DNA of 57,975 nt from Vampirovibrionales bacterium (GTDB lineage: Bacteria > Cyanobacteriota > Vampirovibrionia > Vampirovibrionales > JAGQHJ01). This document shows, one piece after another, positions 37,175 through 57,975 of this stretch. Made by a program: the position numbers and the translations under genes. The stretch covers positions 1 to 57,975 of the forward strand of contig JANWIO010000059.1 of NCBI GenBank assembly GCA_025449835.1, given 5' to 3'. The notes below the pieces were generated by a model, which was given only the letters and a program-made list of their open reading frames with translations, was not told where the DNA came from and made no database searches. The stretch's first letter is position 1. The number at the start of each line of letters is the position of its first letter.

Positions 37175-37178
37175 TCTT

Positions 37179-37550: not shown

Positions 37551-37611
37551 CTAAAAGCTCCTTGTTGATACGTTGCGTGGACTGGAAAGTTTGTAAAATC
37601 CAATTAAGCCG

Positions 37612-37911: not shown

Positions 37912-37936
37912 TGAACCACTAATTTGGAATGAGAGG

Positions 37937-38266
37937 CTATCTTACAGCTGCAATGGACTGGAAGGCGTTTTTATCCACATGAAGAATGACGTTTTGATGA
38001 TCCACTTCAAAATAAAACACAGACGGGCCATTTTCCGAATCGGAGTCATCTCGTGAGCCATCCAAATGCAGGGAATTCTCAAAAGAAACATTGGGGTGAT
38101 GAAACCGTTCATAGTCACTCCCAAATTCTGCATTGGATAATTGCTGCCATTCCGTCTTGGTAATAATGGTAGAGTGAGCCTTCTTCGGATTGGTGGCCGT
38201 GGTTTGGTAAGATAAAGTTGGATCTTTTAAGAGGGATGACGCATTTTGTTTGCATTTTTTTTGCAT
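37937..38266 (-). CDS. Hypothetical protein (109 aa)
   Basis: ATG ORF with GGAG RBS, co-oriented with its neighbours. Confidence 0.55.
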   Translation of the reverse strand: MQKKCKQNASSLLKDPTLSYQTTATNPKKAHSTIITKTEWQQLSNAEFGSDYERFHHPNVSFENSLHLDGSRDDSDSENGPSVFYFEVDHQNVILHVDKNAFQSIAAVR

Positions 38267-41997: not shown

Positions 41998-42089
41998 CAA
42001 TATTTTTGCGCCGTTTTTATACCAAACATGAAAAAATGACTTGTTTCTGAAAAGTTTATTGTGCTATAAGGGGATACGTACCAACTTAT

Positions 42090-42166
42090 GGGGCGGTAGC
42101 TCAGTTGGTTAGAGTACCTGCCTGTCACGCAGGATGTCGCGGGTTCGAGCCCCGTCCGCCCCGCCA
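42090..42166 (+). tRNA. tRNA-Asp(GTC)
   Basis: GGGGCGGTAGCTCAGTTGGTTAGAGTACCTGCCTGTCACGCAGGATGTCGCGGGTTCGAGCCCCGTCCGCCCCGCCA; full cloverleaf, encoded CCA. Confidence 0.98.
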
Positions 42167-43600
42167 TTTTTCAAAATCCCTGAATTTATAAAAATATTCA
42201 AACGCTGGATTCCATACAGGACTTAAGTTTTCACCCTCCAATAAATAGTTCGATGAGATAAATCTCAGAAGTCTTCGCCGATTGGTAAAATTTTGATGTT
42301 CATAAAGCACCAGTGCTTTTTCGGCGAGTTCTATGAGTTGGATACCCATTTCGATATAAGAAACGCTACCCCTTTTATGCTCTTCTAAGGTTTTGAGGAG
42401 TTTTTGTTGTTCCTCAACATATTGTTGATGTTTTCTCCTCCAGAGTTCTTCAGGGATGATTCCCTCAAGCTTATCTTCGTATATCTGATCAAGCTTGGTC
42501 TGCACTTTAGATAGTTGGGCTTGGACGTGAGAAGTAGACTCTTTATGAAACACCTTTTCCTCAGCATGGTGTTCTTTTAAGGCTTTAATCACTATTTCAC
42601 TGTCGGGTTTCCCTATCTGAATCCCTTTTAAAAGTGCCAAAAATTGTTGTTCTAGCTTCTCTTCACGTACATGCTTTGCTCTTTGTGAACATTCCTTGTT
42701 CGAACAGTGATAGTAGATATAGCGGTTTTTCTTGAGCTCTGCGGTAATTGCACGTCCGCAGACAGCACAAGAAATTAAACCCGTATATTGGAATTCTCGT
42801 TTTGTGGTTTGCCCTTTATAGCGATTTTGAAGAATACTTTGAACCTTTTCAAAGTGTTCAACTGTAACAATCGGCTGATGTTTGCCTTTGTAATACTTCC
42901 CGGCCCAGTAAAAATCACCGATATAAATAGGATTTTTAAGCATTCTTTCGAGTGAAGTGGCTGGAATTCTCAATAAAGAAGAAGAATAGCGAAACCCTTC
43001 TTGAAAAAGTTTATTTCTCAAGGTAACTAAGGAAAACTCTTGTGATGCATAAAGTTCAAATGCTCGTTTTACCAGAGTAGAGGTCTCTGGATGAACCTCA
43101 ATCAGATGTGTTTCAAGGTTATTTTTATACCCATAAGGGGCAACTGAAGGAAAATGACCTTGTTCGGCTTTTTCTTTTTGTCCTTTTTTTACTTCCTCAG
43201 AAAGATTGTCAATATAATTTTTTGCCATGAGAACTTTAATGCCATGGATAAATTTTTCATGGGATTTTGCATCTTTGCTAAGGATTTCCCCTTCTTTGAC
43301 GAGATGGATTTCAACATCCAACTCCTCTAATCGAACATAGTCTTTGAAGTTTCGATACAAGCGATCAGTTTTTTCAACCAAAATACAATGGGGCTCTTTC
43401 GTGGATTTTAAGAAATCAAGCATTTTGTTAAACTGCTCTCTTCCAGAAGATTTGGCAGTTTCAGCCTCAGTGAAGGTGGTTGAGACGGTTAAGCCATTTT
43501 TGTCAGCATATTCTTGAAGTAATTTTAATTGCGCTGGGATGGAAAAGCCCTCTTTTTCTTGCTCACGGCTAGATACACGTGCGTAAATAACAGCTTTCAT
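42125..43600 (-). CDS. Large serine recombinase (integrase)
   Basis: IYARVSS catalytic Ser, DRLYRN, APYGY recombinase domain, CAVCG..YYHC..C zinc ribbon, coiled coil. Confidence 0.95.
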   Translation of the reverse strand: MKAVIYARVSSREQEKEGFSIPAQLKLLQEYADKNGLTVSTTFTEAETAKSSGREQFNKMLDFLKSTKEPHCILVEKTDRLYRNFKDYVRLEELDVEIHLVKEGEILSKDAKSHEKFIHGIKVLMAKNYIDNLSEEVKKGQKEKAEQGHFPSVAPYGYKNNLETHLIEVHPETSTLVKRAFELYASQEFSLVTLRNKLFQEGFRYSSSLLRIPATSLERMLKNPIYIGDFYWAGKYYKGKHQPIVTVEHFEKVQSILQNRYKGQTTKREFQYTGLISCAVCGRAITAELKKNRYIYYHCSNKECSQRAKHVREEKLEQQFLALLKGIQIGKPDSEIVIKALKEHHAEEKVFHKESTSHVQAQLSKVQTKLDQIYEDKLEGIIPEELWRRKHQQYVEEQQKLLKTLEEHKRGSVSYIEMGIQLIELAEKALVLYEHQNFTNRRRLLRFISSNYLLEGENLSPVWNPAFEYFYKFRDFEKWRGGRGSNPRHPA

Positions 43601-43605
43601 TGTAT

Positions 43606-43791
43606 TTAAACTCCTTGGAGTGATAACAAAACTTGTTTAAGGTCTTCTTTTTGGTAGAGTCGGTATCCATTGAGAGGGTGTCTGATACCCTTGAGCTTAC
43701 CAGAGCGATCCCAACGACGGAGGGTCTCAGCACAGACTCCTATATAGTCAGCAGCTTGTTTGACCGTGAGATAGTCAGAAAGCTTGTTCAT
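43606..43791 (-). CDS. MerR/excisionase-type HTH protein (candidate recombination directionality factor)
   Basis: YLTVKQAADYIGVCAETLRRWD..G.L...R...GYRLY; immediately upstream of the integrase. Confidence 0.85.
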   Translation of the reverse strand: MNKLSDYLTVKQAADYIGVCAETLRRWDRSGKLKGIRHPLNGYRLYQKEDLKQVLLSLQGV

Positions 43792-43951
43792 GGCGGTAGA
43801 CCTCAATATAAACAACGTTACACAACCTATTATATGCAGATGGGCTTTTAAAGAGAGCCTTTCCTAAGCGTTCCTTACAAAAAGTTAGCATTTCACTTGC
43901 CAAGCCATACTCTTTCGATTCGTCTTCGGTTTTCTGCCGGTGAGTTGTCTA

Positions 43952-44284
43952 TTAATAATGATTTGGCAAACCTTTAATAAACTTCTCCTGCCTAACGATA
44001 CCGTCAATCGGATTACCCGTTTCCTGCCAGCTGCATTGGGTCTTGAGCCAGAACATTGTCATTGCCGGGCATTTTCCAGACAATGCCAACTTGTAAGCGG
44101 TCTGCATAACACCGACTTTGGCTTTGGCTTTACCCTGGTAAAGTTGTTCATTGGCGTATTTTTTCAACGTATCAAGGCACATGCCTTTGAGTCGGGCAAT
44201 ATCTTCAAACCGCATGCCCAGACCTGCCATCATTTCAACCTCTGCCAACTCTTTTTCGGTCATTTTCTTAGCGGGATTGCTCAT
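43952..44284 (-). CDS. HTH protein resembling phage terminase small subunits
   Basis: N-terminal HTH (EDIARLKGMCLDTLKKY), G.AKAK..V...YKLA.SG...M.FWLKT...WQE pattern typical of phage packaging-region proteins. Confidence 0.6.
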   Translation of the reverse strand: MSNPAKKMTEKELAEVEMMAGLGMRFEDIARLKGMCLDTLKKYANEQLYQGKAKAKVGVMQTAYKLALSGKCPAMTMFWLKTQCSWQETGNPIDGIVRQEKFIKGLPNHY

Positions 44285-45303
44285 TTTTTATAACTCCGAA
44301 GTTGGGACGAAAAATTGGGTATTTTTGCCAGAATCTCTTTACGGATATGGCTGGCGATCGCCTGCATCAACAGTGGTGGAACACTGTTTCCAATTCGAGC
44401 CCACTGCTGCTCAATGGTTCCTTGAAATTTGTAGTCATCTGGGAAAGAAGCAATCTGCTTAAGCTCAGCAATGGAGAGATAGCGGTTCTCATCAGGATGG
44501 AGAAGGCCACACATCCCAGGCCGTAAGGTTTTACAGATGGTTGGCGCAACCTCAAACCAGCTTAATCGCTTCAGGGAGTAATAGCTTGCTTTTGCACCAA
44601 AACGGCTGTGCAACTGAGAACCATCTTCACCAGGTTTAAGGCATTGGGCAATTTGAGCAGCTTTGCCTGTGGGGCGCTCAAATTCAGATGAAGCTGGGAG
44701 ACTTTGCAGGGCCTCTTTTAAACAAATAGGAATGCCTTGTGGTGTTGGATGAGAGGGTAAAATGCCCAGGTCTTGTCGAACACCAATAAAAATAACGCGT
44801 TGACGGCTTTGTGGGACACCATAGTATTTTGCGTTCATCAGTCGGACAGAAACGTTGTAACCACTCTTTTTCAGGGTTTGGAGGATCTCAACAAAAATAG
44901 GCTTCATTGGCCCCTTGGCCATGCCAGAAACGTTTTCCATCACGAACACCTTTGGAGAAAGTGCCTGAAGTATCCGGATATATTCTTCAAACAATCGATT
45001 CCGGGAGTCTTTAACACATCGCTTCCCTGCGGTACTAAACCCCTGGCAAGGGGGTGAACCATCCAGGATGTCTAACTCGCCAGGTTTTAACCCCGTTTTC
45101 TCAAGGATCTCTTCACCTGTAACTGTAGCAATATCCTGATGAAATAAAAGGGTTTGAGGATGATTTAACCGATAGGTTGCCGCTGCGTTTTCATCCCACT
45201 CAACCGCTAAAAGCACTTTTCCCCCAGCCAGCTGATACCCCATTGAGGAGCCACCACAGCCCGCAAACAATGAAACCACATTGAATAACGGGTTACTCGA
45301 CAT
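44281..45303 (-). CDS. DNA cytosine-C5 methyltransferase
   Basis: SLFAGCGG, GSPPCQGFS, ENV, QSRQRV, IGNSVPP; start placed at MSSNPL. Confidence 0.95.
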   Translation of the reverse strand: MSSNPLFNVVSLFAGCGGSSMGYQLAGGKVLLAVEWDENAAATYRLNHPQTLLFHQDIATVTGEEILEKTGLKPGELDILDGSPPCQGFSTAGKRCVKDSRNRLFEEYIRILQALSPKVFVMENVSGMAKGPMKPIFVEILQTLKKSGYNVSVRLMNAKYYGVPQSRQRVIFIGVRQDLGILPSHPTPQGIPICLKEALQSLPASSEFERPTGKAAQIAQCLKPGEDGSQLHSRFGAKASYYSLKRLSWFEVAPTICKTLRPGMCGLLHPDENRYLSIAELKQIASFPDDYKFQGTIEQQWARIGNSVPPLLMQAIASHIRKEILAKIPNFSSQLRSYKK

Positions 45304-45817
45304 AGAAGGACTCCTGGCAGTTGGGACAAGTGACTTGTTTAAAGTTGTTCGGATCTTCTTTTTCCAGGATGGATTCATCCAATTCTGGTTCACTTTCTGG
45401 CAGTGATGGGACACTGCTTAAATTACTTAACTCTATCTCCCGAAAGCCGGTTAATTGAAGGTCTTTAAAGTCCAGTTCCTTCAACGATTCAAATTCAGTT
45501 CGTAAAAGCTCTAAATCCCAGCCGGTATTTAATGTCAATTTGTTGTGAGCAAGGGCATATGCTTTTCTTTCCGCCTCGGATAAATGCCCCAATTGAATAA
45601 CAGGGATTTTTTCCAATCCCAACTTTTGTGCAGCCAACAGGCGTCCATGGCCTTCGATGATGACATTTTCTGTATCAATCCCGATGGGGTCATTAAACCC
45701 AAAAGCTTGAATACTGGCAGCAATTTGGTCAATCTGTTCCGGTGGATGTTGTTTTGCATTATTGATGTAAGGGATTAAGGTCTCTATTGAAATCCATTTA
45801 ACGGTTAATGTGTTCAA
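45293..45817 (-). CDS. ParB/Srx N-terminal domain protein with C-terminal CPxC
   Basis: LIPY.NNAKQH, SIQAFGFNDPI, IIEGHGRLLAA, HNKL. Confidence 0.85.
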   Translation of the reverse strand: MNTLTVKWISIETLIPYINNAKQHPPEQIDQIAASIQAFGFNDPIGIDTENVIIEGHGRLLAAQKLGLEKIPVIQLGHLSEAERKAYALAHNKLTLNTGWDLELLRTEFESLKELDFKDLQLTGFREIELSNLSSVPSLPESEPELDESILEKEDPNNFKQVTCPNCQESFYVE

Positions 45818-45927
45818 AACGAAAACTCCTGTGTAATTATTAAAATTAATATCGATACTTACAGCGTAACAGAGGGAATCTGGTTTCTTGAAGCTTTATT
45901 ATTTAAAACGGGTTTTTCTGAAATTGT

Positions 45928-46007
45928 CTTTAACACTTTAACTACGGGGTTGTTACTTAATAATGGCTAGGCTTTTAGGTTTTCATGCTGAAGGTAAAGT
46001 GTTAAAG
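45928..46007. repeat. 13-bp perfect inverted repeat with internal TAAAGTG iterons (candidate ori)
   Basis: CTTTAACACTTTA (45928-45940) and TAAAGTGTTAAAG (45995-46007), 54 bp apart, at the primase-helicase 3' end. Confidence 0.6.
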
Positions 46008-48539
46008 TGGTTTTTCCAACTTTTTATCAAATCGATACCAAGTGACATTCCCACTGCGACGTTCTGTTTCAATTACCATAAAGCGTTCAATATTGGGTTT
46101 AAGACGTTGTAACTGGCGTCCCAATGACTTAGCATTTTTGATGTGGTAAGGGATTTTCAGATTCTCTGCCAGGATTAAAAGCTTTTGGTGAAGCGTTTTT
46201 GTGTCCATCCAATAATTGGGATACTCCTCCACAAAAAGCGTTAAGCACTCAAATAAGCTGTCCATTTCAAGGGTAAACTGAGATTGGCTATCGGAGAGCT
46301 TTTCAAGCAGTTTAATTAGCTCATCTTCATTACCTTGATATTTGGCAATTCGATAACAGAAGCTTGCAAAATCAGCCATCCTAAAATTGGTTTGAAAACC
46401 TTCTCCTGGGACAGAAGCCAAGGCTTTTAAAATGTTTTGGAGTTCTGGTATCAAGTCAGATAAAAAGGCATTTCGTGTTTCTAGAAGTTCTCGATTTAAA
46501 TCCGATTCGGGACGCTTTTCAGCTCCCCATGGCTTTAAACTTAATAGTAATAGGCGATCTGCAACATCATCCCTACGGTAATTTGGGGTCCGACTATTTA
46601 AAGCCAAAAAGGACTTAATTTGGATTTCTGTTTCTTCTGCCGTGGTGTACAGGGTTCGCATGCGGATTGTACCCCCTGTGGCGCAGATGGCCAAGGTGTC
46701 ATTTAACCATTTGGAGCGTTCATCCACATTGTCAAAGGCTAAAAAGTGATGATTAGCCAATGCTACCTGAAAATCTTGTTGTTTTTCAGGTAAGGGTGTT
46801 ACATCGAACCCTTTGCCAATCAAGAGCCTCCCAATTCGCCTTAATAAGGATGTTTTACCACTGCCTTTATCTGCCACAGGACAAAGAATAGGCCGGGTTT
46901 TCATCAAAGTGGGAAAGAACAAACTTAAAAAGTAAAATTTTAAAACGGTCTTTTGCTCATCCGGTGTTAGAAGGTATTCTTCATTAAAATTAATTTGGTC
47001 AAGCAACAACTCTGCAAGGTAGTCTCGGCCCAGATCAAATGGCACTTGTGTAAAGGGCTCATACTTATTATTTTCCACAAATAAAAAGCCATCCGTTCCA
47101 TTGGGTACGGATTCAATCATTGATGTTGTTATTTTCAAAATGGCTTGATTACCATTAGCCCAATAGAGTGTATTGGTAGCCTTTTCATAATGGAGTAGGT
47201 CGTGTACTTCAGTAAGTTTGCCATTACGAAAGGCCTCATTGAGTAATTCTTTGAGGATGTAGCCATGGATAGCTTCAATGGGATTAAGGCCAAGCTGATG
47301 GAGGAGGTGAAGAAGGCTTTGGGATTCCTTGTGAATGAGCATCAATTGGCATTTTTCATTATCAAAATAATAAAGAGCCAGCTTTGTTTTATAGAAAGTG
47401 CCTCGGTCTCGCATTTCTCCAATAACAAGCTTAGAGGCTCTTTGATTGACCTCAAATTCTTTTAATTTGGTTTCATTCTTCCGGATACCATGAAGCTCAA
47501 CTGTAATGGCACTTAAAAAGCGATATCGTGCCTTTGCTTCCATTGTAAGTTGTTGCAAGGCGATTAAAGCTTCATGAGGTGAACCATATCCCCGAAGAAA
47601 ACTATCAAGATCACTATCTGGAAGAGAAGCTTGAGTTACCCAGAAAGTCCGATGTTGTTGCATCTCCAACGCCAGATAGTCCCCAGCTTCATCATGATCC
47701 TGGAACAACAGCCATTTTCCTTTGTATGTTTTCAGTGTTCCCCAATCCACTGCAGAAGAGCTCCCAAGGGCAATACATGGTTGATAGGACTGCCCAGCTT
47801 TCAGAAGAGTACTTTGCAGCATCAATATGTTTATTTCCCCTTCAACAAGAAGGATATAGGGTTCTAAGGTGGCATCCTTCGTTGGATCTAGTTGTGGGTT
47901 AAACACACCGCATTTTGGAAAGGGCTTAAACCATGAAAATCGCTTGGAGAAGGGCTCTCTAAAACGGATTGAGGTAATTTCATTTTTAGAGCCGGTGTAA
48001 ATAAATGCCAGATTGCCGGGGTGGGTTACCTCTTTTAACTTTTCTAACATCTCATCAAAGTTGGATATCGCCTGTTCAAGACGTTCCTTGCGCTTTTTAT
48101 CCACAATCCCCTTCTCTAAAAGCCTTTCTAACTTCTCCCTGAAGGGGGCCGCCATGGTGTCAAGGTTAAGTTCTTGAGGGACTGTTCCGACCAAGCTTTC
48201 TTGAATTACCTGGGGATGGATTTTACGCTCATTTGTCAGATATTGCCAGGCAAAGCTGTAATGATCATCCGGGTTTTCGCCTTGCCTCAATATCTCTCGC
48301 TTGAGGTTCCCCACCAGTTCCCACAAAAATCCTTGAACAGGGTTTTTGTCCCCATCCAATGCCTGTGGGCTAATAAAGCGCCCACAGGTTGGATGGAAGC
48401 ATTTTGCAAGCTGGTCATTTTTCGCCACACTCATGGTGCCATGACTGCAAAATGGACAATTTACCTTTCCTTTTCCTTTGGTTGAAATACCATGTACTTC
48501 TGAGAGGTATGCTTTTGCAGAAAAATTAGTCTTTGTCAT
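46002..48539 (-). CDS. Primase-helicase replication protein (Zn finger + TOPRIM + P-loop)
   Basis: CPFC..CFH..C, LLVEGE and QDHDEAG (TOPRIM), ADKGSGKT Walker A, LAFDNVD Walker B; AAGGAG RBS. Confidence 0.85.
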   Translation of the reverse strand: MTKTNFSAKAYLSEVHGISTKGKGKVNCPFCSHGTMSVAKNDQLAKCFHPTCGRFISPQALDGDKNPVQGFLWELVGNLKREILRQGENPDDHYSFAWQYLTNERKIHPQVIQESLVGTVPQELNLDTMAAPFREKLERLLEKGIVDKKRKERLEQAISNFDEMLEKLKEVTHPGNLAFIYTGSKNEITSIRFREPFSKRFSWFKPFPKCGVFNPQLDPTKDATLEPYILLVEGEINILMLQSTLLKAGQSYQPCIALGSSSAVDWGTLKTYKGKWLLFQDHDEAGDYLALEMQQHRTFWVTQASLPDSDLDSFLRGYGSPHEALIALQQLTMEAKARYRFLSAITVELHGIRKNETKLKEFEVNQRASKLVIGEMRDRGTFYKTKLALYYFDNEKCQLMLIHKESQSLLHLLHQLGLNPIEAIHGYILKELLNEAFRNGKLTEVHDLLHYEKATNTLYWANGNQAILKITTSMIESVPNGTDGFLFVENNKYEPFTQVPFDLGRDYLAELLLDQINFNEEYLLTPDEQKTVLKFYFLSLFFPTLMKTRPILCPVADKGSGKTSLLRRIGRLLIGKGFDVTPLPEKQQDFQVALANHHFLAFDNVDERSKWLNDTLAICATGGTIRMRTLYTTAEETEIQIKSFLALNSRTPNYRRDDVADRLLLLSLKPWGAEKRPESDLNRELLETRNAFLSDLIPELQNILKALASVPGEGFQTNFRMADFASFCYRIAKYQGNEDELIKLLEKLSDSQSQFTLEMDSLFECLTLFVEEYPNYWMDTKTLHQKLLILAENLKIPYHIKNAKSLGRQLQRLKPNIERFMVIETERRSGNVTWYRFDKKLEKPL

Positions 48540-48744
48540 TGGTAGTATCTCCTTTAAACTCATAAACGTTATGCAAAACATCTCTTAATGCTTGCTGAAA
48601 AAGGGGATGCTCTTTTAACCGGTCCCAAACCTCTATGGGGATTGGGCTCCAAAATCGCAACTCCAGATAAGGGCCATCATGCTTGTTGGACATTGAATCG
48701 CCCTCCCAAATACGCTATGATTATTTTGAAATTATTATTTTTGC

Positions 48745-48773
48745 CTACTGGTACCCGCCAGTAGCTTTTTTTT
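48745..48773 (+). terminator. Intrinsic terminator oriented antisense to the element's operon
   Basis: CTACTGG-TACCCG-CCAGTAG followed by C and T8. Confidence 0.65.
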
Positions 48774-48780
48774 CGTTTTT

Positions 48781-48981
48781 TCATTGTTGACCTCCTTTTG
48801 CCTCTGCTTCTTTTTGGGCGTCTTCCTGAGCCCATTTGTGTAAAATTCCGAAAAATCCCTTGAGGTTTGTTCCAATCTCTAGCCGATCCGCTTCAGATAG
48901 CGGATGACCATATAGCTTTTCCCAACCTGCATAAGGATCTAGGTGGGGAGTATTAGTACTTTCTTTAAGAGAAGTTTTCAT
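48781..48981 (-). CDS. Small hypothetical protein, paralog of 48965-49159
   Basis: WEKLYGHPLSEADRLEIGTNLKGFFGILHKW; AAGGA RBS. Confidence 0.7.
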   Translation of the reverse strand: MKTSLKESTNTPHLDPYAGWEKLYGHPLSEADRLEIGTNLKGFFGILHKWAQEDAQKEAEAKGGQQ

Positions 48982-49159
48982 TTTTGTCCTTTCTATGGTT
49001 TGTTTCTGATTCATATTCTTGATTCCACTCCCATAAGAGGGAGAAAAAGCCTGTAAGATCACTGAGCAAGTTTTGAGCTTCGCTTTCAGAAACCTGTCTA
49101 CCTAGCCGCTCTTCCCAGAGGAGCTGAGTGTCTTCAACCAGTTTTTTACTGAAGGGCAC
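48965..49159 (-). CDS. Small hypothetical protein
   Basis: WEERLGRQVSESEAQNLLSDLTGFFSLLWEW; GGAG RBS and GTG start. Confidence 0.7.
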   Translation of the reverse strand: MPFSKKLVEDTQLLWEERLGRQVSESEAQNLLSDLTGFFSLLWEWNQEYESETNHRKDKNENFS

Positions 49160-49334
49160 AGGTCGCTTCTCCAAGCTTGAGAATGTTAAGCGCAGCACAC
49201 TTAGGACAAGCTGTTACAGCTTCTCCAGAACCTTGAAAACGAAACTGAAGTTGATCAGTTTGCAGTAATAGAAAACCTGGTTGGTAAGTCCCAAGCCCTT
49301 TTTTACAGCGATAACATAGCCAAAGTCGTTTCAA
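49146..49334 (-). CDS. Small zinc-ribbon protein (Com-like)
   Basis: CYRCKK.LG ... CPKCAALN. Confidence 0.65.
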   Translation of the reverse strand: MKRLWLCYRCKKGLGTYQPGFLLLQTDQLQFRFQGSGEAVTACPKCAALNILKLGEATCALQ

Positions 49335-49452
49335 TCTTCAAGTTCCTTGGTTACTGAACCTGAGAGTAAAATACCTTAGGATGTTTTCTGTATTCCCCCG
49401 TTTGGAATCTGTTTTTTATCTGTTTTCTGGAAACTCTTTTGTAAATTTAACT

Positions 49453-50439
49453 TTAGAGATATGGCTCTAGTAAAAAGTTCTCTATATCAATATCTTGTGC
49501 CTTAAGATTTAGGCTAAATCCTTTATTGATAGTGGTAATAAGATGTTTTTCAAAGTCTGGGCGAATGCCTTTCTTTCCATGTAGTTTTGAAAAGGTCTTT
49601 AAAACGCTTCTTTTATGCTGATCTAATTGTTTTATGAGGCTTGGTTCATTCTCAATATGCCATAAATGAACTGCTATTTCATCATAACCACACCATTCTG
49701 AAGCCTTATGAGCTAAAAAGCAAAGCAATTTAAATGGTAAAGGGGAAAGTGTAAATGAATGCCCTTTGTAAATTACGATATTGGGAGACTTGAGAACTAA
49801 TGTCTTAAGTTCTGTATCCGTTTCTTTGTTTAGAGGGGATGGAATAGTCAACATAAGAGTTCTTGAATCAAAAATATCTTTAAGTGAGCTTACATAAATT
49901 CCTTCAGCCAATAAAGTAGACTCGATTGACTTATTCCGAGTTGGTTGAGGGAGAAGTAAAAATAATTCTGAGGCATTAAAGTGTCTTTTTGCGAGAGATG
50001 CACTGGAAACCAACAACTCTTTGGCAATATTGCCATAAGCTAAAACCATATTTCGCTGAGGTATAAGCCCAAAGGTATGCCATGGTGAGCAGGATGCATC
50101 CTCATATATGGTTGCACTTACAGAATTTTTGAGCAGCATAAGGAGTCGGTCAAAATCGACTTGAAAACCATTGATGTAGCGTTTATCAATCCATTGTAAG
50201 CCCCGAAGAAAGCCTGTTGGACAGGAAAAATAGGGCTTATTATCCTCATATTCTACCGGTAAAATGCATTGTTCATAGCATTCAAAGCAGTCATAATGTT
50301 TGAACACCAATGGTTTCAAAAGACGATTTTGTTCAAGAAATTGCCTTACCTCTTCAGGCAGCTTTGTAAACTCCTCCTGGTTTAAGGGGTTAAGGGGCAA
50401 TGACTCAAACCAGCAATGGTAAAAGTTGTTGTTTTCCAA
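49453..50439 (-). CDS. Hypothetical protein with N-terminal Cys cluster and C-terminal OmpR-type winged helix
   Basis: CFECYEQC..CP; YKGHSFTLSPLPFKLLCFLA..YDEIAVHLW..ITTINKGFSL. Confidence 0.75.
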   Translation of the reverse strand: MENNNFYHCWFESLPLNPLNQEEFTKLPEEVRQFLEQNRLLKPLVFKHYDCFECYEQCILPVEYEDNKPYFSCPTGFLRGLQWIDKRYINGFQVDFDRLLMLLKNSVSATIYEDASCSPWHTFGLIPQRNMVLAYGNIAKELLVSSASLAKRHFNASELFLLLPQPTRNKSIESTLLAEGIYVSSLKDIFDSRTLMLTIPSPLNKETDTELKTLVLKSPNIVIYKGHSFTLSPLPFKLLCFLAHKASEWCGYDEIAVHLWHIENEPSLIKQLDQHKRSVLKTFSKLHGKKGIRPDFEKHLITTINKGFSLNLKAQDIDIENFLLEPYL

Positions 50440-51559
50440 TCATAATCCCCCATTGAAATAAGTTTTTTTCAATACAGCAGTCAACTTGTGTGTCATTTAA
50501 ATTGGTAGTGTTTGTCTGTGATAGCGTAATGGTTCTATTCTTTGTTCTTCCATTATCCTGAAGGAAGGTAAATTGAATCCATGCTTTTTGGATTACCATT
50601 AAGTTTGGATCAATGTTTCTGGCCCTTAAGGTTTCCTCAACATCTCCCGTGAATCGCAACTCGAAAGTCGTTTTATTTGTGGGAGAGACTTTCCCCCGAA
50701 ATCCAACAATAGCAACATTTACGATTTTATCAATCGGATTGGTTTCAAATTGCCTCAATGTTTTCAGTCGGTGGAGGTTCAGAATGATTTTTGAGTTCTC
50801 TTGTTCGAAGAAATAAGCGTCTTCTAAGTACACGGCGGCAAAGCATTGGCGTGTAATGTCTTCAAAATCCTTACGTTTTGCCTTGATTTTCAGCTTACCT
50901 TCTTTTGGAAAGTAAATAAGGGTTGATTCAAAAATGGGTCGCCGTGGCATTTCTGAGAGGATGCCTTGTTGAAATTCTTTAATGGGCCTAAGGTAGTCTT
51001 CGTTGGTGATTACCATGGTTAAAGTACCGTGTTCTTCATCGAAGTCAGTTTCAGTATGAATATTTTCCCCAAGCTCTTTACCCTTAATGTGGCCTAGAAT
51101 GGCTTGTTTTAGTTCAAACTCTTTTTCCTCAGTCATAATAGAGTTTTTGGGGCTTTTACCAAGATATTCGGAATAGCCTTTCAGGTGATTGAGTCTGAGC
51201 CGACGTCGGGCCATTGTAAATCCCATAGGGTGGTTTAGATAGAGTGTTGCGGAAAGATTCAGTGGCAATACATCATGACGTGGGATTCCGAGACTGTCTG
51301 CAATGAGTATCATATTTTCTAAGCCTTCATCACAGGCCAAGTCATTGATTTGAGTGAAGCAAATATCACATTTCCCTTTTATTTCAGAAGGCAACGCAAC
51401 GTATTGGTCATAAAGAGCTTTGTGTCCTTCTTGCTCAAGGGCTTGGTAAAACTCGCTGTCATCAGGAACACCCATTGTCTTCACAAGCTCCTGCAAAAGC
51501 GACTTATCAATTTGTCTCAAAAAAGCTTTGGGTCGAAATTCTCTTAAGATTCCTTTCAT
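50405..51559 (-). CDS. Hypothetical protein (~384 aa)
   Basis: Long ORF with AGGAG RBS, overlapping the downstream gene; no motif assigned. Confidence 0.8.
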   Translation of the reverse strand: MKGILREFRPKAFLRQIDKSLLQELVKTMGVPDDSEFYQALEQEGHKALYDQYVALPSEIKGKCDICFTQINDLACDEGLENMILIADSLGIPRHDVLPLNLSATLYLNHPMGFTMARRRLRLNHLKGYSEYLGKSPKNSIMTEEKEFELKQAILGHIKGKELGENIHTETDFDEEHGTLTMVITNEDYLRPIKEFQQGILSEMPRRPIFESTLIYFPKEGKLKIKAKRKDFEDITRQCFAAVYLEDAYFFEQENSKIILNLHRLKTLRQFETNPIDKIVNVAIVGFRGKVSPTNKTTFELRFTGDVEETLRARNIDPNLMVIQKAWIQFTFLQDNGRTKNRTITLSQTNTTNLNDTQVDCCIEKNLFQWGIMIGKQQLLPLLV

Positions 51560-51891
51560 AGAACGTCTCTCCTGTATAAATATTACATTTATAACAAAAA
51601 ACAATTTATGTCTTTTACGACAGTCATGTTACAACAAGCTCTTCAGTAAACAAATAAATTTATTGATTTGTTTTGAATTGTAAAGTTAATAGTCATTTAA
51701 CAGATAAATGAATAAACAAAAAGCAGTAAACAACAAATAGTTGATGATATTTTGATTCAGGTTGAAATCTCTTGTGTAGAGCGAGGAAACAGTTTTAACT
51801 AGGTTTTCATGTCCTCCTGAGGATGCAGGTTGGCATGCTTTGTGCTTGAATACTGATACTTGGAAGAGTGTTGATTCAATGGTGAAAGCAA

Positions 51892-54800
51892 ATGAAAATG
51901 GTCAAGGAAACTAAAGTTTCTTCAAGAAGAAAAAGTATTAATAAAACGCTTTATGAGACACATAAGCAACAATCTCTAAATACCAACCTGAAAGGGCAAC
52001 CTGTTAAGAGTAGTCGAACCGTCGTAGTTCGGGTTGCTGATCCAACCAATCCCAGGTTTGTAGATGTAAATCAAAAATTTTCATTTCCAGCCCGAGAACA
52101 GGATATTGCTCTTCTAAAGGATTTATTGAGTGATTTCGGATTGGCACGCCACTCCGTGATGGAAGACATTTGGCAAGACTTTCAACAAAATGAAGCCTTC
52201 TATATCCAGGAAGCACAGGAAGTTGAGTATGCTGAAAAGCATGGAACGAATATAAGCCGTTTTACCACTGAAGAAGGTGAGGTAATTTCTACTCCCTTTA
52301 GTTGCCAAGAATGTCAAAAACCTCTTTATGTTCATTATTATGACCCAATTCAGGATAAGAGTAAAAAGCCAAAACGCTATTATTTTGCAAGATGCATCGA
52401 AGAAACCCACAAACGTGGTATTAAACTATCTGACAAAAAGGATGTTAACGATTCTTCTAAAACTATGTTTGATATTAAAAAGTTTAAAGCCCAGCCATTA
52501 TCAAACCATTTCTCTGCTAAATACATTACTGGTAGTAAAACGAAAAATAGTTATGAAAATTGCTTAAAACCCTTTGAATTACCAAAAATAAAAAGACAAT
52601 GGGAACGTTCTGTTGGCGATTCACTTCGGCAAATTGCAGCTAGGGATTTAGCGGGGTTCCTGGACAAATATTATTCCGTCAAGGAGTCTATTCAAAAAAC
52701 GATTGAACATAATAATAAGCAGATTGATTCCAACAGCCTGAAATATGGGTTATCCAAATACCAAGTTTCACCCTTGAACCTCTCCTTGCTTTCATCTATT
52801 AATGGACGAGATGATATTGACGCTTATAATCGACTTGTCTCTACTTATAATACCTGGCTGAATGAAACCTGTTGGCAACACCCAGAGTATGGAAAAGAAC
52901 TTAAGGAAGCATTGCCTAAGTTAAAGCGTTTAAAAGGCTACCCCTCTTTTCCCATCATTGAAAAAGAGCAAAGTCGTTTTCAATATACGGAAGAAGAACT
53001 TGGACTAAAGTTTGAACAATTGATTGCTGACCTTGAAGCTAACTGGCATGTTCATCTTGAACAGTTGACCGATGGTATGTTTCATAATTTTTTAAAACGT
53101 CACAGTCCTCGGGTTATTTGGAAAAAACTACCAGAATATATTGATGATATATCCCCTCCTAAACGCCTCTATTTGAAAAGAAAAGATGAAAAGCAAAAAT
53201 CCCAAAAACAACCTCTGCAATTCAAAGCGACCGAACGCATTGGAAATTGGCTATTTTATGAGTATAAGCAAAAGAACCAGCCCTTGAAAACAGCGTTGAT
53301 AAATACACTGAAGCGTATTGACCAAAAGATTGGTGTACTGAAATTTCATTATCAGAAACAAAAACAGAATGATAAGGAAAATAGGGATATTCAGTCGTAT
53401 CAGCAACTTATCAAATGGTATCAAGCCAAGACAACCCTTCTTCTCGAAGCCCTCCATCCATCCTTGGATACGACAAGTGAGGAACAGAAAACGCTTTATT
53501 GGGAGGTTATCTCTCAAGCCAAAGATTTGTACGGATTGCTCAGAGGAGACCCTTTCAAAAAGAAATTAGAACGAAAAACATTTGAGGTTGTTGGGTTCTC
53601 ATCCTCTGGGAAAACGGGAAAAACTTCTCTTCAGTACGATGCAATCCTTTCAATTTATATCTCTGAAAAGAATGTACCGGAATATTACTTGCTGCTCCAA
53701 CCCCTGAAAAAAGAGAAAAAATGTAAATTTCTTTTAAATGTTGATGAACGGGTTAATCTGACCAGCCTATCCCCCGGCTGGTATGGTTTTTGGAAGGATG
53801 GAGGTAATGACACAACAGTTTTATCGCCCATGGAAGTGAATTTTACTGAAGAAGCTATTATCAGGCTTCCGTTAATCTTTGGTGAACGTCAAGGACAACG
53901 GTATTTGTGGAACAGAATATTCCCTTTAGCATCCTCAACAGAGATGGGCAAATTTCGACTCATGAATGCTCGTGTCATTGAGCAAAGCCTTGCAACTGAC
54001 TTGAAAGATGAAAGGCTAAGAAATAAATATCGCAAGCAAGAAGGACTTTATATTGCCATTGCTTTTGAGAAGGTGGCAGAACATGGGGTACTGGATGATA
54101 AAAGATGGCAATATCAAACAATTTTAGGAGTGGATCGGGGTGAGAAAATTCCTCTGGTTGCCAGATTACTTGATTTGGATGGTAATCCATTACTTGTAGA
54201 TGTTGAAAATGGACAAGATCCATCGATGGGGATACAAATTGGTGTGGATCATTATGCTATTCAGAAAAAATGGGCTGAGAAAATCAAACAGCAACAGAAA
54301 ATAGGTTCTGCTCAAGTCAATGTGGATAGTAACCGTGGGAAACATGTTGCTGATCAGATGATTAACAATGCTGTAGCCCAACTCTTGGATATTGCTAAGT
54401 CTCATAACGCCTTAATTGTATTTGAAGATTTGTCCAGAGGTTTTGGAAGGAGAGGCTCGAACACATATATGACACTCCAGCAGTATACCCGCTTGGAGGA
54501 TGCTTTAATCCGAAAGGCCCAGGAAGTCGGTTTATATCCAGCTAAAGGAGATCTTTTGACGAACTGTCGCAAGGGGATTTTAGCAAAAGTAATAGCTCAA
54601 CATACCTCTCAAACCTGTTCTGCTTGTGGCAGAATCAATAGCAAGGATGCTCTATCCAAAATCCTATTCTCAACCCTCCATAAAACGGACGGAAATTATG
54701 CTTTGAAACGTCCTGACGGTAGCTTGCTCTCTTTAAAAAAGACTGATTTAACCGAAGAAATAGATAAAATTCTAAAAAATGGACAATCCTTTCAGAATTT

Positions 54801-55224
54801 AACAAAGACAGCCCGTAAAAATTTGGTAAGCCTGCTAAACCAGGAATTACAATATAGACCGACCCAGGATCAGTTTCAATGTTTGTATTGTGACCATAAA
54901 GCACATGCGGATGCCCAAGCAGCCCTTAACATTGGACGAGCTTGGCTTTTTGTGCGGGAAGAGGAGGTCAAGGCTTTTCGAGATAGGAGTTCATTGCCTG
55001 GAGAAGCCAAGGGTAGCCAAGAACATCAGCAATACAAAAAGCAGCAAGAGAAGACTCAAAAAGCCAAAAACACTGGTAGGCATTCGAACGATATCGAGTA
55101 TTATCCAGAGAACGAATCGGAAGATATGCAAGGTGCAAAAGATATCAATCAAAAACAAGTTTCTTATGCAGACTTCTGGAGTCAGTTCTATCAAAAACGT
55201 CTGGAGCAAAAGCTATTTCAGTAG
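51892..55224 (+). CDS. cas12e: Type V-E CRISPR effector, Cas12e/CasX-like (1110 aa)
   Basis: RuvC-I GVDRGE, RuvC-II VFEDLSRGFGR, RuvC-III HADAQAALNIGRAWLF, TSQTCSACG; CasX-type motifs FSCQECQKPLYV..YFARC, LKRLKGYPSFP, LPLIFGERQG, QYTRLED, WSQFYQKRL (compared from memory). Confidence 0.9.
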   Translation: MKMVKETKVSSRRKSINKTLYETHKQQSLNTNLKGQPVKSSRTVVVRVADPTNPRFVDVNQKFSFPAREQDIALLKDLLSDFGLARHSVMEDIWQDFQQNEAFYIQEAQEVEYAEKHGTNISRFTTEEGEVISTPFSCQECQKPLYVHYYDPIQDKSKKPKRYYFARCIEETHKRGIKLSDKKDVNDSSKTMFDIKKFKAQPLSNHFSAKYITGSKTKNSYENCLKPFELPKIKRQWERSVGDSLRQIAARDLAGFLDKYYSVKESIQKTIEHNNKQIDSNSLKYGLSKYQVSPLNLSLLSSINGRDDIDAYNRLVSTYNTWLNETCWQHPEYGKELKEALPKLKRLKGYPSFPIIEKEQSRFQYTEEELGLKFEQLIADLEANWHVHLEQLTDGMFHNFLKRHSPRVIWKKLPEYIDDISPPKRLYLKRKDEKQKSQKQPLQFKATERIGNWLFYEYKQKNQPLKTALINTLKRIDQKIGVLKFHYQKQKQNDKENRDIQSYQQLIKWYQAKTTLLLEALHPSLDTTSEEQKTLYWEVISQAKDLYGLLRGDPFKKKLERKTFEVVGFSSSGKTGKTSLQYDAILSIYISEKNVPEYYLLLQPLKKEKKCKFLLNVDERVNLTSLSPGWYGFWKDGGNDTTVLSPMEVNFTEEAIIRLPLIFGERQGQRYLWNRIFPLASSTEMGKFRLMNARVIEQSLATDLKDERLRNKYRKQEGLYIAIAFEKVAEHGVLDDKRWQYQTILGVDRGEKIPLVARLLDLDGNPLLVDVENGQDPSMGIQIGVDHYAIQKKWAEKIKQQQKIGSAQVNVDSNRGKHVADQMINNAVAQLLDIAKSHNALIVFEDLSRGFGRRGSNTYMTLQQYTRLEDALIRKAQEVGLYPAKGDLLTNCRKGILAKVIAQHTSQTCSACGRINSKDALSKILFSTLHKTDGNYALKRPDGSLLSLKKTDLTEEIDKILKNGQSFQNLTKTARKNLVSLLNQELQYRPTQDQFQCLYCDHKAHADAQAALNIGRAWLFVREEEVKAFRDRSSLPGEAKGSQEHQQYKKQQEKTQKAKNTGRHSNDIEYYPENESEDMQGAKDINQKQVSYADFWSQFYQKRLEQKLFQ

Positions 55225-55306
55225 AAGTTTCCATGAAAAGGCAATTTTTACCTGCCCCTTGTGTTGATTGTTTTATTAGTCCCTTCTTGAGTAGCCTAAG
55301 TAAGCC

Positions 55307-55951
55307 ATGTTTGAAGAAGAAAACCCACTTCTACCTGTTTCCTGGGTTGCTGATTATGCATTTTGCCAATGGGCAGGATATGCTTTCTTTACAGGTTTGG
55401 AAAATTTTGAACAAAAGAATACGGTTTATCAGGATAGCATTGCAGGCCATTTGAGTGTTCATGAGCAACAAAGCCGTTACCGGGAAAAAGGAATTGTTCA
55501 GAAAACGGATGTTTCACTCTCCCATGACATGCTCTACCTAACCGGTAAGGCGGATATGGTTGAGCTTTGGCCTGAAGGGAAAATTGTTCCCATAGAATAC
55601 AAACGTTCCGTTCCTGCCGAAGGGCCACACTTCCATCATCAGGTTCAGCTTTGTCTCCAAGCGCTTTGTCTGGAAAAACAGTATCAAAAGGATATTCCAG
55701 AAGGAGTTATATACAGCATTACCAGCCATCAAAGGGTGCCTGTTCCCTTGACTCCACTATTACGGGAACAAACTCTCAACCTGCTCTCTGAACTCAAAAA
55801 CAAGCTGAAATCTGGAAATCCAAATATGTTCCAAAAACGAAATGATCTGCTCTGCCGACAGTGTACGTTTTTCGAAATCTGCCTTCCACCTGTTTTCTTT
55901 GATGAGTTGAGAAAGACTTCTTCAGATTTTGCAGACCAGGAGGAATTTTAA
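55307..55951 (+). CDS. cas4: CRISPR-associated Cas4
   Basis: DYAFC, LTGKADMVE, PIEYKR, QLCLQALCLE, CRQC....IC. Confidence 0.93.
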   Translation: MFEEENPLLPVSWVADYAFCQWAGYAFFTGLENFEQKNTVYQDSIAGHLSVHEQQSRYREKGIVQKTDVSLSHDMLYLTGKADMVELWPEGKIVPIEYKRSVPAEGPHFHHQVQLCLQALCLEKQYQKDIPEGVIYSITSHQRVPVPLTPLLREQTLNLLSELKNKLKSGNPNMFQKRNDLLCRQCTFFEICLPPVFFDELRKTSSDFADQEEF

Positions 55952-56944
55952 ATGCGATATGATGGTTTGGAGCGTGTCCCCTTATATCTTTACGCAAAAG
56001 AGGATTACTCTTTAAAAAAATATGGCGACTTATTTCGCTTGTTCCGGGGAGAGGAACAAATTCAGAAAATTCCTGCCATTAAAGTAAATGAGATTCTGGT
56101 TTTCGGTGGGCTCACATTAACTTCTCCCGTAATCCAACTTTGTCAAAAGCACAAAATTAATATTCATTTTTTATCCGGTTCTGGCCAGTATCATGGTTCG
56201 CTCATTTTTGATCCAGCTAAGAACCTCTTTATCCGAAAAGCACAAGCTGAAATCCACCTGGATGACAAACGGCGTCTGGAGTTTGCCAAAGAGTTTGTGC
56301 TAGGAAAAATAACAAACCAAAAATGGGTTTTAGACAGTTTTAGAAAAAAACACCGATTTAACCCAAATATTGATTGGAATAAAATTGAATCTCTTGATTC
56401 ACTTCGTGGGGTGGAAGGGACGTATAGTCGCTTGTATTTTCAAGAACTAGCCAAGCAACTTAAAAACACTGATTTTTCCTTCAACGGACGCTCGAAACGC
56501 CCCCCAGCTGATCCGGTCAATGCGCTTTTGAGTCTTGGGTATACTTTCCTATTCAGTCGCCTTTTCTCATATACAACATTGATCGGTCTTGATCCCTATT
56601 TAGGTTTTTTTCATGAAAACTATTACGGCCGTCCTTCATTAGTTTGTGACTTGATGGAGCCATGGAGACCCCTCTTGGTCGATAAATTCATCCTAACGAT
56701 ATTGAATAGGAATGAATTGTCATTGGAAGACTTTGAACGGGTAGACGACAGCATAAAACTGAATAGTGAAGGTTTCAAGAAATTTATTCAGAAGTGGTAT
56801 ACAAACTTTGAGGTAGACAACCATACTTCAGGACGGTTTGAAACAGAACTGACATACCAAAAAGCGCTAGAGCTTGATACAAGGTTATTTGGGAAATCAT
56901 TGACACAAGAGATTGAAGCATATAAGGCTTATACCAGACCATGA
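55952..56944 (+). CDS. cas1: CRISPR-associated Cas1
   Basis: LRGVEG..SRLYF, RPPADPVNALLSLGY, GLDPYLGFFH, SLVCDLMEPWR. Confidence 0.97.
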   Translation: MRYDGLERVPLYLYAKEDYSLKKYGDLFRLFRGEEQIQKIPAIKVNEILVFGGLTLTSPVIQLCQKHKINIHFLSGSGQYHGSLIFDPAKNLFIRKAQAEIHLDDKRRLEFAKEFVLGKITNQKWVLDSFRKKHRFNPNIDWNKIESLDSLRGVEGTYSRLYFQELAKQLKNTDFSFNGRSKRPPADPVNALLSLGYTFLFSRLFSYTTLIGLDPYLGFFHENYYGRPSLVCDLMEPWRPLLVDKFILTILNRNELSLEDFERVDDSIKLNSEGFKKFIQKWYTNFEVDNHTSGRFETELTYQKALELDTRLFGKSLTQEIEAYKAYTRP

Positions 56945-57216
56945 GGTACTTGATTTGTTATGATATTGAGGATGACAAACATCGTAATCGCCTTGTCAAA
57001 GTGCTTGAACAATATGGTGAAAGGGTCCAATATTCAGTTTTTGAAGTACAATTGCCGCCTAGCCTCCTGAAAACATTACGAAAGCGTCTGGTAGCGCAGA
57101 AAATAATAGGTAAACGGGATAGCCTGTTAATCTATCCTCTATGCGAAAGTTGCTACCCTAAAGTTGAACGAACCGGCAAGAACCCTTTGATCAATTCAAG
57201 CGGCATTGTGTTTTAA
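56941..57216 (+). CDS. cas2: CRISPR-associated Cas2
   Basis: YLICYDI.DDK.R, YGERVQYSVFE, DSL.IYPLC. Confidence 0.97.
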   Translation: MRYLICYDIEDDKHRNRLVKVLEQYGERVQYSVFEVQLPPSLLKTLRKRLVAQKIIGKRDSLLIYPLCESCYPKVERTGKNPLINSSGIVF

Positions 57217-57234
57217 TGGCTAAACTGTTATAGT
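57206..57234 (+). promoter_or_regulatory. Candidate sigma70 promoter for the tracrRNA
   Basis: TTGTGT-N17-TATAGT with extended -10 TG. Confidence 0.5.
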
Positions 57235-57251
57235 TCCTTCTGGAGCCACAA

Positions 57252-57340
57252 GCTCTGGGCCATTTATTGGAAACTCTTCCTTTGAGTCCCGAACCCAGCA
57301 CGTAACGTGTATGGACAAAGTTGCTTCCTTACCAAATCTT
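57252..57340 (+). ncRNA. CasX-type tracrRNA (ends approximate)
   Basis: CTTTGA (57280-85) complementary to the repeat 3' TCAAAG; scaffold stem CCAGCACGTAACGTGTATGG (57295-57314); anti-repeat TGCTTCCTTACC (57322-33); located between cas2 and the array. Confidence 0.8.
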
Positions 57341-57554
57341 TTATATTACACATCTAACTGTGTGTTTTGTACTTTGAGAAAAGAATAAGGCGAAAGCCCT
57401 TACCTTATAAGGGTTAAGAAGATTTTTGTAACTTGCAAGGGTTTGTTTTATGAAAATGCTTTGATTGATAAGGGTTTTCAGATTTTAGGGATAAACTTTT
57501 CTCAACTCTTTAAAAGGCCAATGCTAAAAACCCTGAATATACAAGGAAAATGAG

Positions 57555-57975
57555 GTCTGAAACCCTTATAAGGTAAGGAGCATCATCAAAGGTAATCCGT
57601 CGGTTAACAATTTCTAGGATTTCAGTCTGAAACCCTTATAAGGTAAGGAGCATCATCAAAGATACTACTACACGTCAAACAGCGCAAGAGTTTGGTCTGA
57701 AACCCTTATAAGGTAAGGAGCATCATCAAAGTAGAGTTCTGTTGAGGGGTCTCCCGGTGGGGTGACGTCTGAAACCCTTATAAGGTAAGGAGCATCATCA
57801 AAGTAAAGAGCTAGATATGATTGTAGATCTTTACGGCCTAGTCTGAAACCCTTATAAGGTAAGGAGCATCATCAAAGTTATCAACATAGCCACCTTCAAA
57901 ACAAAGACCCACCGTCTGAAACCCTTATAAGATAAGGAGCATCATCAAAGATCAGGATTGCTCTAACGCTCCCAC
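57555..57975 (+). CRISPR. CRISPR array with 37-bp repeat GTCTGAAACCCTTATAAGGTAAGGAGCATCATCAAAG; 6 repeats, 5 full spacers (33, 33, 35, 37, 36 nt) and 1 partial; truncated by the window end
   Basis: Repeats start at 57555, 57625, 57695, 57767, 57841 and 57914; AT-rich leader upstream. Confidence 0.99.

Follow-up and report, generated by a model that had tools for sequence, protein, structure and literature searches.

A Cas12e (CasX) CRISPR-Cas system as the probable cargo of a composite tRNA-Asp island in a Vampirovibrionales genome

In this study we analysed a 57,975-nucleotide (nt) stretch of DNA from a Vampirovibrionales bacterium (assembly GCA_025449835.1, contig JANWIO010000059.1), below called the window, which carries a type V-E CRISPR-Cas system with the effector Cas12e (CasX) and a tRNA-Asp gene. 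The window takes up contig C59 of this genome (G000, a 2.9 Mb assembly in 167 contigs) from end to end and breaks off inside the CRISPR array. Our reading, to which we give a probability of roughly 0.65, is that the Cas12e system is cargo of a composite mobile island of at least 24.8 kb, situated at the sole tRNA-Asp locus of G000. An original prediction, made from the letters of the window, had proposed CasX as cargo of a single, phage-satellite-like element integrated at tRNA-Asp. The cargo part of that proposal is supported by a distal direct repeat, by defence cargo in sister elements and by the rarity of Cas12e, while several of its other parts had to be revised as described below.

The locus was compared with 49 genomes of the order, a 401-genome sample of the phylum, viral loci of IMG/VR and a species-level genome collection. 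Two elements are distinguished: E1, the tRNA-proximal element with a serine recombinase and a primase-helicase, and E2, a distal element with a tyrosine integrase and a DnaB-like helicase on a second contig, C94, which read in reverse is designated C94rc.

The proximal tRNA-Asp(gtc), called by ARAGORN at 42090..42166 on the plus strand, marks the left junction of the island (the attL side). Left of it, the order YmdB, 177-aa open reading frame (ORF), formyltetrahydrofolate ligase, helix-turn-helix (HTH) gene and tRNA-Asp is syntenic in two genomes of the order, G001 and G004, neither of which has an island gene beside its tRNA-Asp, and judged by this synteny the left flank is chromosomal. From the tRNA a run of minus-strand ORFs extends over 42125-51604; the cas operon (51892-57216), divergent from it on the plus strand, comes next, and then the array from 57555. 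This arrangement, on which the original prediction was built, was reproduced by the tRNA and ORF calls. The prediction had further proposed looking downstream of the array for a copy of the tRNA-Asp 3' end (attR), and a second tRNA-Asp(gtc) does occur there, on C94 about 9 kb on, in the same orientation, of full length and 100% identical to the proximal copy. The assembly holds just these two copies. Their similarity extends some 100 nt further, giving a 184-nt direct repeat of 96.7% identity (window 42084..42267, plus strand, against C94rc 9025-9208; blastn-short and alignment), the proximal copy of which takes in tRNA-Asp and the ~100 nt at the end of the recombinase gene. The repeats enclose 15,809 nt on C59 and 9,030 nt on C94, that is at least 24.8 kb, plus the missing part of the array. 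In line with the original prediction, no attR was found before cas12e, tRNA-Asp pieces of 9 nt or longer not exceeding chance between 43.6 and 51.9 kb; with attL at the tRNA 3' end, in the position seen in relatives, the distal tRNA-Asp repeat is the sole attR candidate. Given the join of C59 and C94, tRNA-derived direct repeats thus flank a block missing from relatives, as in a tRNA-linked island.

That the two contigs are adjacent we infer from two kinds of sequence evidence. The CRISPR repeat is confined in the whole assembly to the end of C59, with six copies, and the end of C94, with five, in consistent orientation, which brings the array to at least 11 repeats. Independently of the array, the contigs are linked by what follows the distal tRNA, namely 52 codons of a gene related to the recombinase of E1 (residues 440-491, 88% identity, one stop). 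A second recombinase remnant (residues 445-466) lies about 1.1 kb further, both falling within L001:9690-10900 (C94rc about 9108-10306), and the pair points to repeated use of the tRNA-Asp site by elements that decayed in place. Beyond the distal tRNA lie genes for GtrA, glycosyltransferases and sugar-nucleotide enzymes. The fragmentation into 167 contigs gives some room to the alternative that C59 and C94 are not neighbours, that the second tRNA-Asp is unrelated and that the island is an artefact of assembly or binning, but the exclusive and consistently oriented CRISPR repeat and the remnant of the same recombinase family after the distal tRNA make this highly improbable.

On C94rc the five further repeats are followed by a Fic protein (PADLOC SoFic, E=6e-123), a split tyrosine integrase, a DnaB-like helicase, several ORFs without assignment, HigB and the tRNA-Asp. 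The integrase gene (L001:17113-18318, minus strand), with an HTH_17 region near the N-terminus of its product, is interrupted by a single in-frame stop. The HigB-family toxin gene stands at the tRNA-proximal end of this decayed element (L001:11376-11675). Two other genomes of the order, G030 (L016, C16:1-14000) and G040 (L015, C10:12000-25547), have tRNA-Asp islands that measure 10-11 kb and end in 3' tRNA fragments of 51-54 nt. Both the tyrosine integrase and the DnaB-like helicase have homologues in these islands, as do two of the unassigned ORFs, and the integrase lies directly beside the tRNA. E2 therefore belongs to an independent family of tRNA-Asp elements, of which the islands of G030 and G040 are the intact form. 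Since the integrase abuts the tRNA in these relatives, the stretch that runs from the serine recombinase to SoFic (E1 and cargo, at least 17.4 kb) occupies the entire gap between tRNA and E2 in G000. By its gene content the island is composite, made of E1 and an older, decayed E2 with a dead tyrosine integrase, and the single element of the original prediction is not supported; the 184-nt repeat brackets the whole.

The effector gene (51892..55224, plus strand) encodes 1110 aa and scores 373.7 bits against the NCBIfam equivalog model NF045604, with a cut-off of 200; its PDB matches are PlmCasX (E=5e-85) and DpbCasX (E=4.5e-73). The aspartate of GVDRGE, the glutamate of FEDL and the aspartate of HADAQ align to the Ala positions of dead CasX chains in the PDB, which we take to be the catalytic RuvC residues, and by these matches and this alignment the protein qualifies as a genuine Cas12e with an intact RuvC D-E-D triad. 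Downstream on the same strand follow cas4 (55307..55951; Pfam Cas_Cas4), cas1 (55952..56944; Pfam Cas_Cas1, E=5.3e-84), cas2 (56941..57216; Pfam CRISPR_Cas2) and the array (57555..57975), of which the window holds six 37-nt repeats, separated by spacers of 33-37 nt, up to the contig end. Between cas2 and the array, an 18-nt anti-repeat at 57398..57415 (plus strand; plus/minus match in blastn-short) is perfectly complementary to a portion of the CRISPR repeat, and both its position and its complementarity fit a putative tracrRNA; Rfam has no family matching this region. The layout predicted from these features, with Cas4, Cas1, Cas2, tracr anti-repeat and array, is that of a complete type V-E system. 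Neither piece of the array matched the phage collection, and the nine full spacers and one partial spacer have no match elsewhere in the genome.

With 1110 aa against 978-986 aa, this Cas12e exceeds the solved CasX proteins by about 125-130 residues, and a search of 5.8 billion proteins returned three close homologues only, of 1079-1082 aa and 57-59% identity. The extra length and the small number of close homologues suggest a distinct long (~1080-1110 aa) and sparsely sampled branch. No close relative with genomic context was found in the genome-contig or metagenome-contig collections. Above the cut-off, Cas12e occurs in one of the 49 genomes of the order and one of the 401 of the phylum sample, in both cases G000 itself; four weaker matches in the phylum sample are other Cas12-like proteins of ~1220-1236 aa.

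The tRNA-proximal gene of E1 (42125..43600, minus strand) encodes a 491-aa large serine recombinase with Resolvase, Recombinase and Zn_ribbon_recom domains, all above the Pfam cut-offs, and matches the integrase family phrog_95 (E=1.6e-70). The integrase of the original prediction is thus a recombinase at tRNA-Asp, but not a tyrosine integrase of the kind found in P4 or phage-inducible chromosomal islands (PICI). Its 3' end overlaps the tRNA-Asp 3' end by 42 nt. Targeting of tRNA genes is usually associated with tyrosine integrases. A place beside a tRNA gene recurs among relatives of the recombinase. Homologues at E<=1e-60 are present in 12 of the 49 genomes of the order. Of ten loci examined among the 19 listed non-self places, eight have a tRNA gene (Val, Glu three times, Ile, Ala, Pro twice) where the recombinase gene ends, in most cases with an overlap. 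At the remaining two (L075, L099) no tRNA was called, the alignment of L075 nevertheless showing a tRNA-like 3' segment. Among the viral loci of IMG/VR, of which 24 of 26 holding a homologue were examined, six have a tRNA-Gln, tRNA-Leu or tmRNA converging on the recombinase 3' end. A locus of Marinimicrobia (L065) has primase-helicase, 94-aa ORF, recombinase and tRNA-Asn in the same order as the window. The clade at tRNA or tmRNA 3' ends (Gln, Leu, Asn, Pro, Val, Glu, Ile, Ala) comprises loci L022, L026, L032-L034, L041, L065, L076, L097, L101, L102 and L104-L107.

Behind the recombinase gene of one complete, circular phage genome, similarity to a tRNA 3' end is limited to ~30 nt, which suggests a crossover inside the 3' part of the tRNA and, normally, a short att identity. 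Related viral records and most loci of the order offered no useful attR repeats, G007 being the exception, and no inverted half-site partner of the attL arm was found with up to 4 mismatches in 22 nt. The full-length distal tRNA of G000 could be an element-borne tRNA copy, the result of a Campbell-type homologous insertion, or a capture by alternative excision, the last of which is hinted at by nested fragments in G007. At the tRNA-Ile site of that genome (L104:280-480) the full tRNA is followed by a 35-nt remnant of a recombinase 3' end, a 35-nt tRNA 3' piece and an intact recombinase gene, and the remnant-plus-piece unit is repeated 14.4 kb away (L104:14715-14915).

The replication protein of E1 (46002..48581, minus strand, 859 aa) has no match in Pfam, PHROG, NCBIfam or PADLOC. 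In its 17-member family, in which two proteins are fused to DnaG primase domains, a C..C zinc-finger pattern, the acidic E/DxD of Toprim and a Walker A GxGKT are conserved. An AlphaFold (AF2) model built from 16 sequences reached a predicted local distance difference test (pLDDT) score of 86.9, and in Foldseek its N-terminal half matches Aquifex DnaG (2au3), its C-terminal half helicases of the superfamily 3 (SF3)/D5 type, among them the SaPI5 primase-helicase (7ola) and the helicases of African swine fever virus and NrS-1. Motifs and modelled fold thus confirm the primase-helicase of the original prediction, as a zinc finger and DnaG-type Toprim primase fused to an SF3/D5-like P-loop helicase. 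The alpha protein of P4 likewise consists of a Toprim primase and an SF3 helicase. Within the order this protein is limited to G000, where it occurs twice, and G012, for which coordinates and scores were the same as for G448; the species-level collection added five distant loci in other phyla.

The remaining genes of E1 are all on the minus strand as well. Next to the recombinase, at 43606..43815, lies a 69-aa HTH_17/MerR-type protein of AlpA/Xis-like appearance (Pfam HTH_17, E=4.6e-10), which matches PHROG families of excisionases and regulators; it may act as a regulator or directionality factor, and the label of excisionase fits it to that extent, its role following from family resemblance. 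The 110-aa HTH protein at 43952..44284 represents the conserved N-terminal part, some 88 residues' worth, of a phage-associated family of ~176 aa, two homologues of which sit on contigs equal in size to ones holding primase-helicase homologues. The C-5 cytosine methyltransferase (Dcm-type, 377 aa, 44281..45414; Pfam DNA_methylase, E=1.9e-66; PADLOC MTase_II) appears to be an orphan, no restriction partner having been detected, and beside it a 174-aa ParB_N-like protein (45293..45817) matches phrog_620 (E=1.1e-51), Pfam ParB_N remaining below its cut-off; both had been announced correctly. The two ORFs overlap by 122 nt in different frames (window 44281-45817). Fused ParB-methylase profiles of PHROG and PADLOC match both, so the pair may be a split or frameshifted fusion. 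Three overlapping small ORF calls of 93 (p93), 77 and 62 aa at 48781..49334 are kept beside the primase-helicase in relatives (tblastn: L107, L075, L065); they do exist as predicted, but have no family matches that would support the name of small regulators. Two larger ORFs carry no functional assignment: p328 (328 aa, 49453..50439), without a match in Pfam, PHROG, NCBIfam or PADLOC and with counterparts by size and position in G012 (317 aa) and G007 (294 aa), and p399 (399 aa, 50405..51604), a conserved backbone gene with tblastn homologues in G012:C23, G013 and G007 and a weak match to phrog_37634.

Across the ~25 kb on C59 and C94, Pfam and PHROG detected no capsid, tail, portal, relaxase or type IV secretion system gene in the ORFs scanned, nor a large terminase, in agreement with the predicted lack of structural and conjugation genes; as p328 and p399 are unassigned, this means none detected. 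Likewise, no relaxase, coupling protein or type IV secretion system expected of an integrative and conjugative element was matched, and p328 and p399 could still encode such functions. A complete or defective prophage would find some favour in the homologues of the recombinase, which are phage integrases (phrog_95) and in some cases reside in complete phage genomes, but with no capsid, portal, tail or large-terminase match over ~25 kb we consider it most improbable, and a full prophage was rejected on this ground. Capsid or tail genes after the array, which in the original prediction would have spoken for a prophage, were not found on C94.

The original prediction preferred a phage satellite, and here the evidence is divided. 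If E1 or the whole island were a satellite of the P4/PICI type, it would be excised and replicated upon helper induction and packaged into helper capsids, carrying Cas12e along. The set of recombinase, AlpA-like HTH protein, primase-helicase and small HTH protein without detected structural genes is what such a satellite would have, the fold of the helicase resembles that of the SaPI5 primase-helicase, some complete phage genomes contain related recombinases, and the nearest ESM Atlas clusters of p399 and p328 are unnamed and rich in phage members. The layout of integrase, AlpA-type protein and primase therefore stood, but no convincing gene for packaging or capsid redirection could be established. 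The small HTH protein had been called similar to a terminase small subunit (TerS), and its family is weakly like phage proteins: among weak BFVD matches most are unnamed phage proteins and a few are named terminase small subunit. The HTH itself is real, but the match to phrog_309 is weak (E=0.0015), the fold has 0 PDB and 0 BFVD matches at E<=0.001, and the copy is shortened to 110 of ~176 aa. Furthermore, the primase-helicase has no relative in IMG/VR (0 of 9 stretches in the scan), no helper phage was identified, and the recombinase is of the serine type, unlike, to our knowledge, the described integrases of P4 and PICI. The size, at least 17.4 kb for E1 or at least 24.8 kb for the whole, also exceeds the 7-20 kb given for satellites in PMC13376191. 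On these grounds we regard a satellite as unlikely.

Support for an island with exchangeable cargo comes from the sister elements. Four related elements with recombinase and primase or helicase genes were found in the order: that of the window, one on another contig of the same genome (G000:C144), one in G012 and one in G007. The first sister (L107:3100-19950) is located at tRNA-Pro(cgg) and contains a serine recombinase (46% identical), an HTH_17 protein, a type ISP-like methylase, a Schlafen/AlbA protein, a 1423-aa PLD-helicase, a QueC-like protein, a p93 homologue and a primase-helicase (42% identical). G012:C23 has a recombinase, HsdM, HsdS and HsdR of a type I restriction-modification system, a 562-aa ORF, a p399 homologue, a 317-aa ORF, a p93 homologue and the primase-helicase. 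The G007 element, delimited by a 78-nt repeat, spans 14.4 kb and holds a recombinase, a type III restriction-modification system, a p399-like gene, a Toprim primase, a DUF3987 helicase and an Abi_2 gene. By gene content, the four appear to be elements with a common backbone and differing defence cargo, and in the tRNA-Asp island cas12e, SoFic and the orphan methylase take the role of that cargo.

Several observations weigh against our reading and have to be set beside this support. The join of C59 and C94 rests on shared repeats at contig ends and not on reads. No tRNA-Asp piece of 9 nt or longer lies at the junction of SoFic and the tyrosine integrase or at 51.56-51.9 kb, nor in the gap between cas2 and the array or in the array trailer, and tRNA-Asp 9-mers in other places are no more frequent than chance would give (2 and 1 observed, ~2 expected), which leaves the right end of E1 undefined. 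The distal repeat contains the full tRNA and 6 nt upstream of it, which the short att identities of relatives do not predict. Of the sister elements, G007 alone is bounded by a repeat; with no att repeat in G012 and G000:C144, the position of their cargo inside the element follows from gene order. In the sisters, moreover, the cargo lies between recombinase and replication module, whereas in the window this module has the opposite orientation, with the cas genes on its distal side, and the analogy is therefore not one of position. The slightly atypical composition of the island speaks for our reading, but the deviation is mild, with a GC content of 0.40-0.42 against 0.435 for the assembly and 0.425-0.442 for flanking host segments, and a tetranucleotide r of 0.91-0.94 against null means of 0.95-0.96 (standard deviation 0.02). 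Finally, there is no close relative with an empty site, the right-flank genes of G001 mapping to contig C140 of G000, and the minimal relative L065, apparently of ~8 kb, has no identified cargo; its upstream genes were partly scanned and its far boundary is unmapped.

Some of these points would suit a different history, in which cas12e and SoFic form a resident chromosomal defence islet in a tRNA-Asp hotspot, with E1 and E2 inserted independently on either side and neither moving the block. The cas genes are not linked to E1 by any att junction and are transcribed divergently from it, L065 does without evident cargo, and the locus is full of old insertions, as witnessed by the two truncated serine-recombinase remnants and the dead tyrosine integrase. 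However, the cas12e-SoFic block has no recombinase of its own and fits exactly between the E1 backbone and the integrase of E2, which abuts the tRNA in the relatives of E2, and all three sister elements hold defence genes. The block is also absent from the other 48 genomes of the order and 400 of the phylum sample that were searched, which argues for its arrival by transfer. We therefore judge a resident islet to be improbable, and return to the Cas12e system as cargo of the composite island, with E1 as the element that would have brought the cas genes in.

How such an island might work can be outlined as follows. By analogy with relatives, the recombinase would integrate the element into the 3' part of tRNA-Asp, restoring the tRNA, and E1 could leave again through the serine recombinase or by homologous recombination between the repeats. 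The excised circle would then be replicated by the primase-helicase together with p399, p328 and p93, while the ParB-like protein and the Dcm methylase may aid maintenance or shield the DNA from restriction. Cas12e with Cas4, Cas1 and Cas2 would give the host, and hence the element, adaptive immunity, to which SoFic would add an innate layer. Candidate routes between cells are the hijacking of phage capsids, mobilisation and transformation. Only tentatively do we go further and propose that these integrative, replicating elements form a family not described before, perhaps one of phage satellites, which uses a large serine recombinase at tRNA 3' ends and swaps defence systems, and one member of which captured CasX; we hold this to be doubtful at present.

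Elsewhere in the window, at 36054-38266, the minus strand carries a tRNA-Val and, after it, small ORFs, one of them with weak GntR/HTH_36 matches.

CasX occurs rarely and in scattered phyla, and the literature covered by our search neither documents how it spreads nor reports Cas12e on an integrative element or satellite. The locus offers a concrete and testable vehicle with a serine recombinase and a primase-helicase, the relatives of which swap restriction-modification, abortive infection (Abi) and other defences on a common backbone, and a place as island cargo would help to explain the patchy spread of CasX. Should a new element family carrying CasX be real, CasX would be a mobile, element-borne immunity module, which would account for its scattered distribution. 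Large serine recombinases directed to tRNA and tmRNA 3' ends may also be of interest for integrase prospecting in genome engineering. A CasX island would not be a new principle, since defence systems on satellites and other mobile elements are well established (PMC13586616, PMC8791490).

Known systems resemble the element in different respects. P4 and the PICI, including the Staphylococcus aureus pathogenicity islands (SaPI), share with E1 a tRNA-type site, an AlpA-like HTH protein, a dedicated primase-helicase, the lack of structural genes and swappable defence cargo, and hotspots of such cargo in P4 satellites are described in PMC13586616. The probable cargo of E1, unlike that of P4, is a full adaptive CRISPR-Cas system; in the passages of PMC13586616 available to us, CRISPR appears only as Anti_CRISPR. 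E1 further departs from P4 and PICI in its serine recombinase, in having no sid/psu/delta, cpm or ppi and no credible terS, and in having no known helper. In the staphylococcal cassette chromosome (SCC), Ccr large serine recombinases move cargo cassettes into the 3' end of rlmH/orfX, where tandem or composite arrays and leftover repeats are formed. E1 is similar in placing a large serine recombinase at the 3' end of a conserved gene, and CcrA, CcrB and CcrC are among the NCBIfam matches of its recombinase, but the score is far below the Ccr cut-offs (85.7 against 900 bits), the target is a tRNA, a replication module is present and the host phylum is different. A tie between CRISPR-Cas and a mobile backbone is also known from plasmid type IV systems, Tn7-like CRISPR-associated transposons (CASTs) and phage-encoded systems, as described in PMC9071438 and 10.64898/2026.04.20.719267. 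From these the present system differs in being of type V-E, with a complete adaptation module, on an integrative element with a serine recombinase. The characterised CasX hosts are Deltaproteobacteria and Planctomycetes. Compared with DpbCasX and PlmCasX (978-986 aa), the protein described here is distinguished by its 1110 aa and its apparent Vampirovibrionales host, while it shares with them the NCBIfam equivalog family, the RuvC residues, the order cas4-cas1-cas2 and a tracr located between cas2 and the array.

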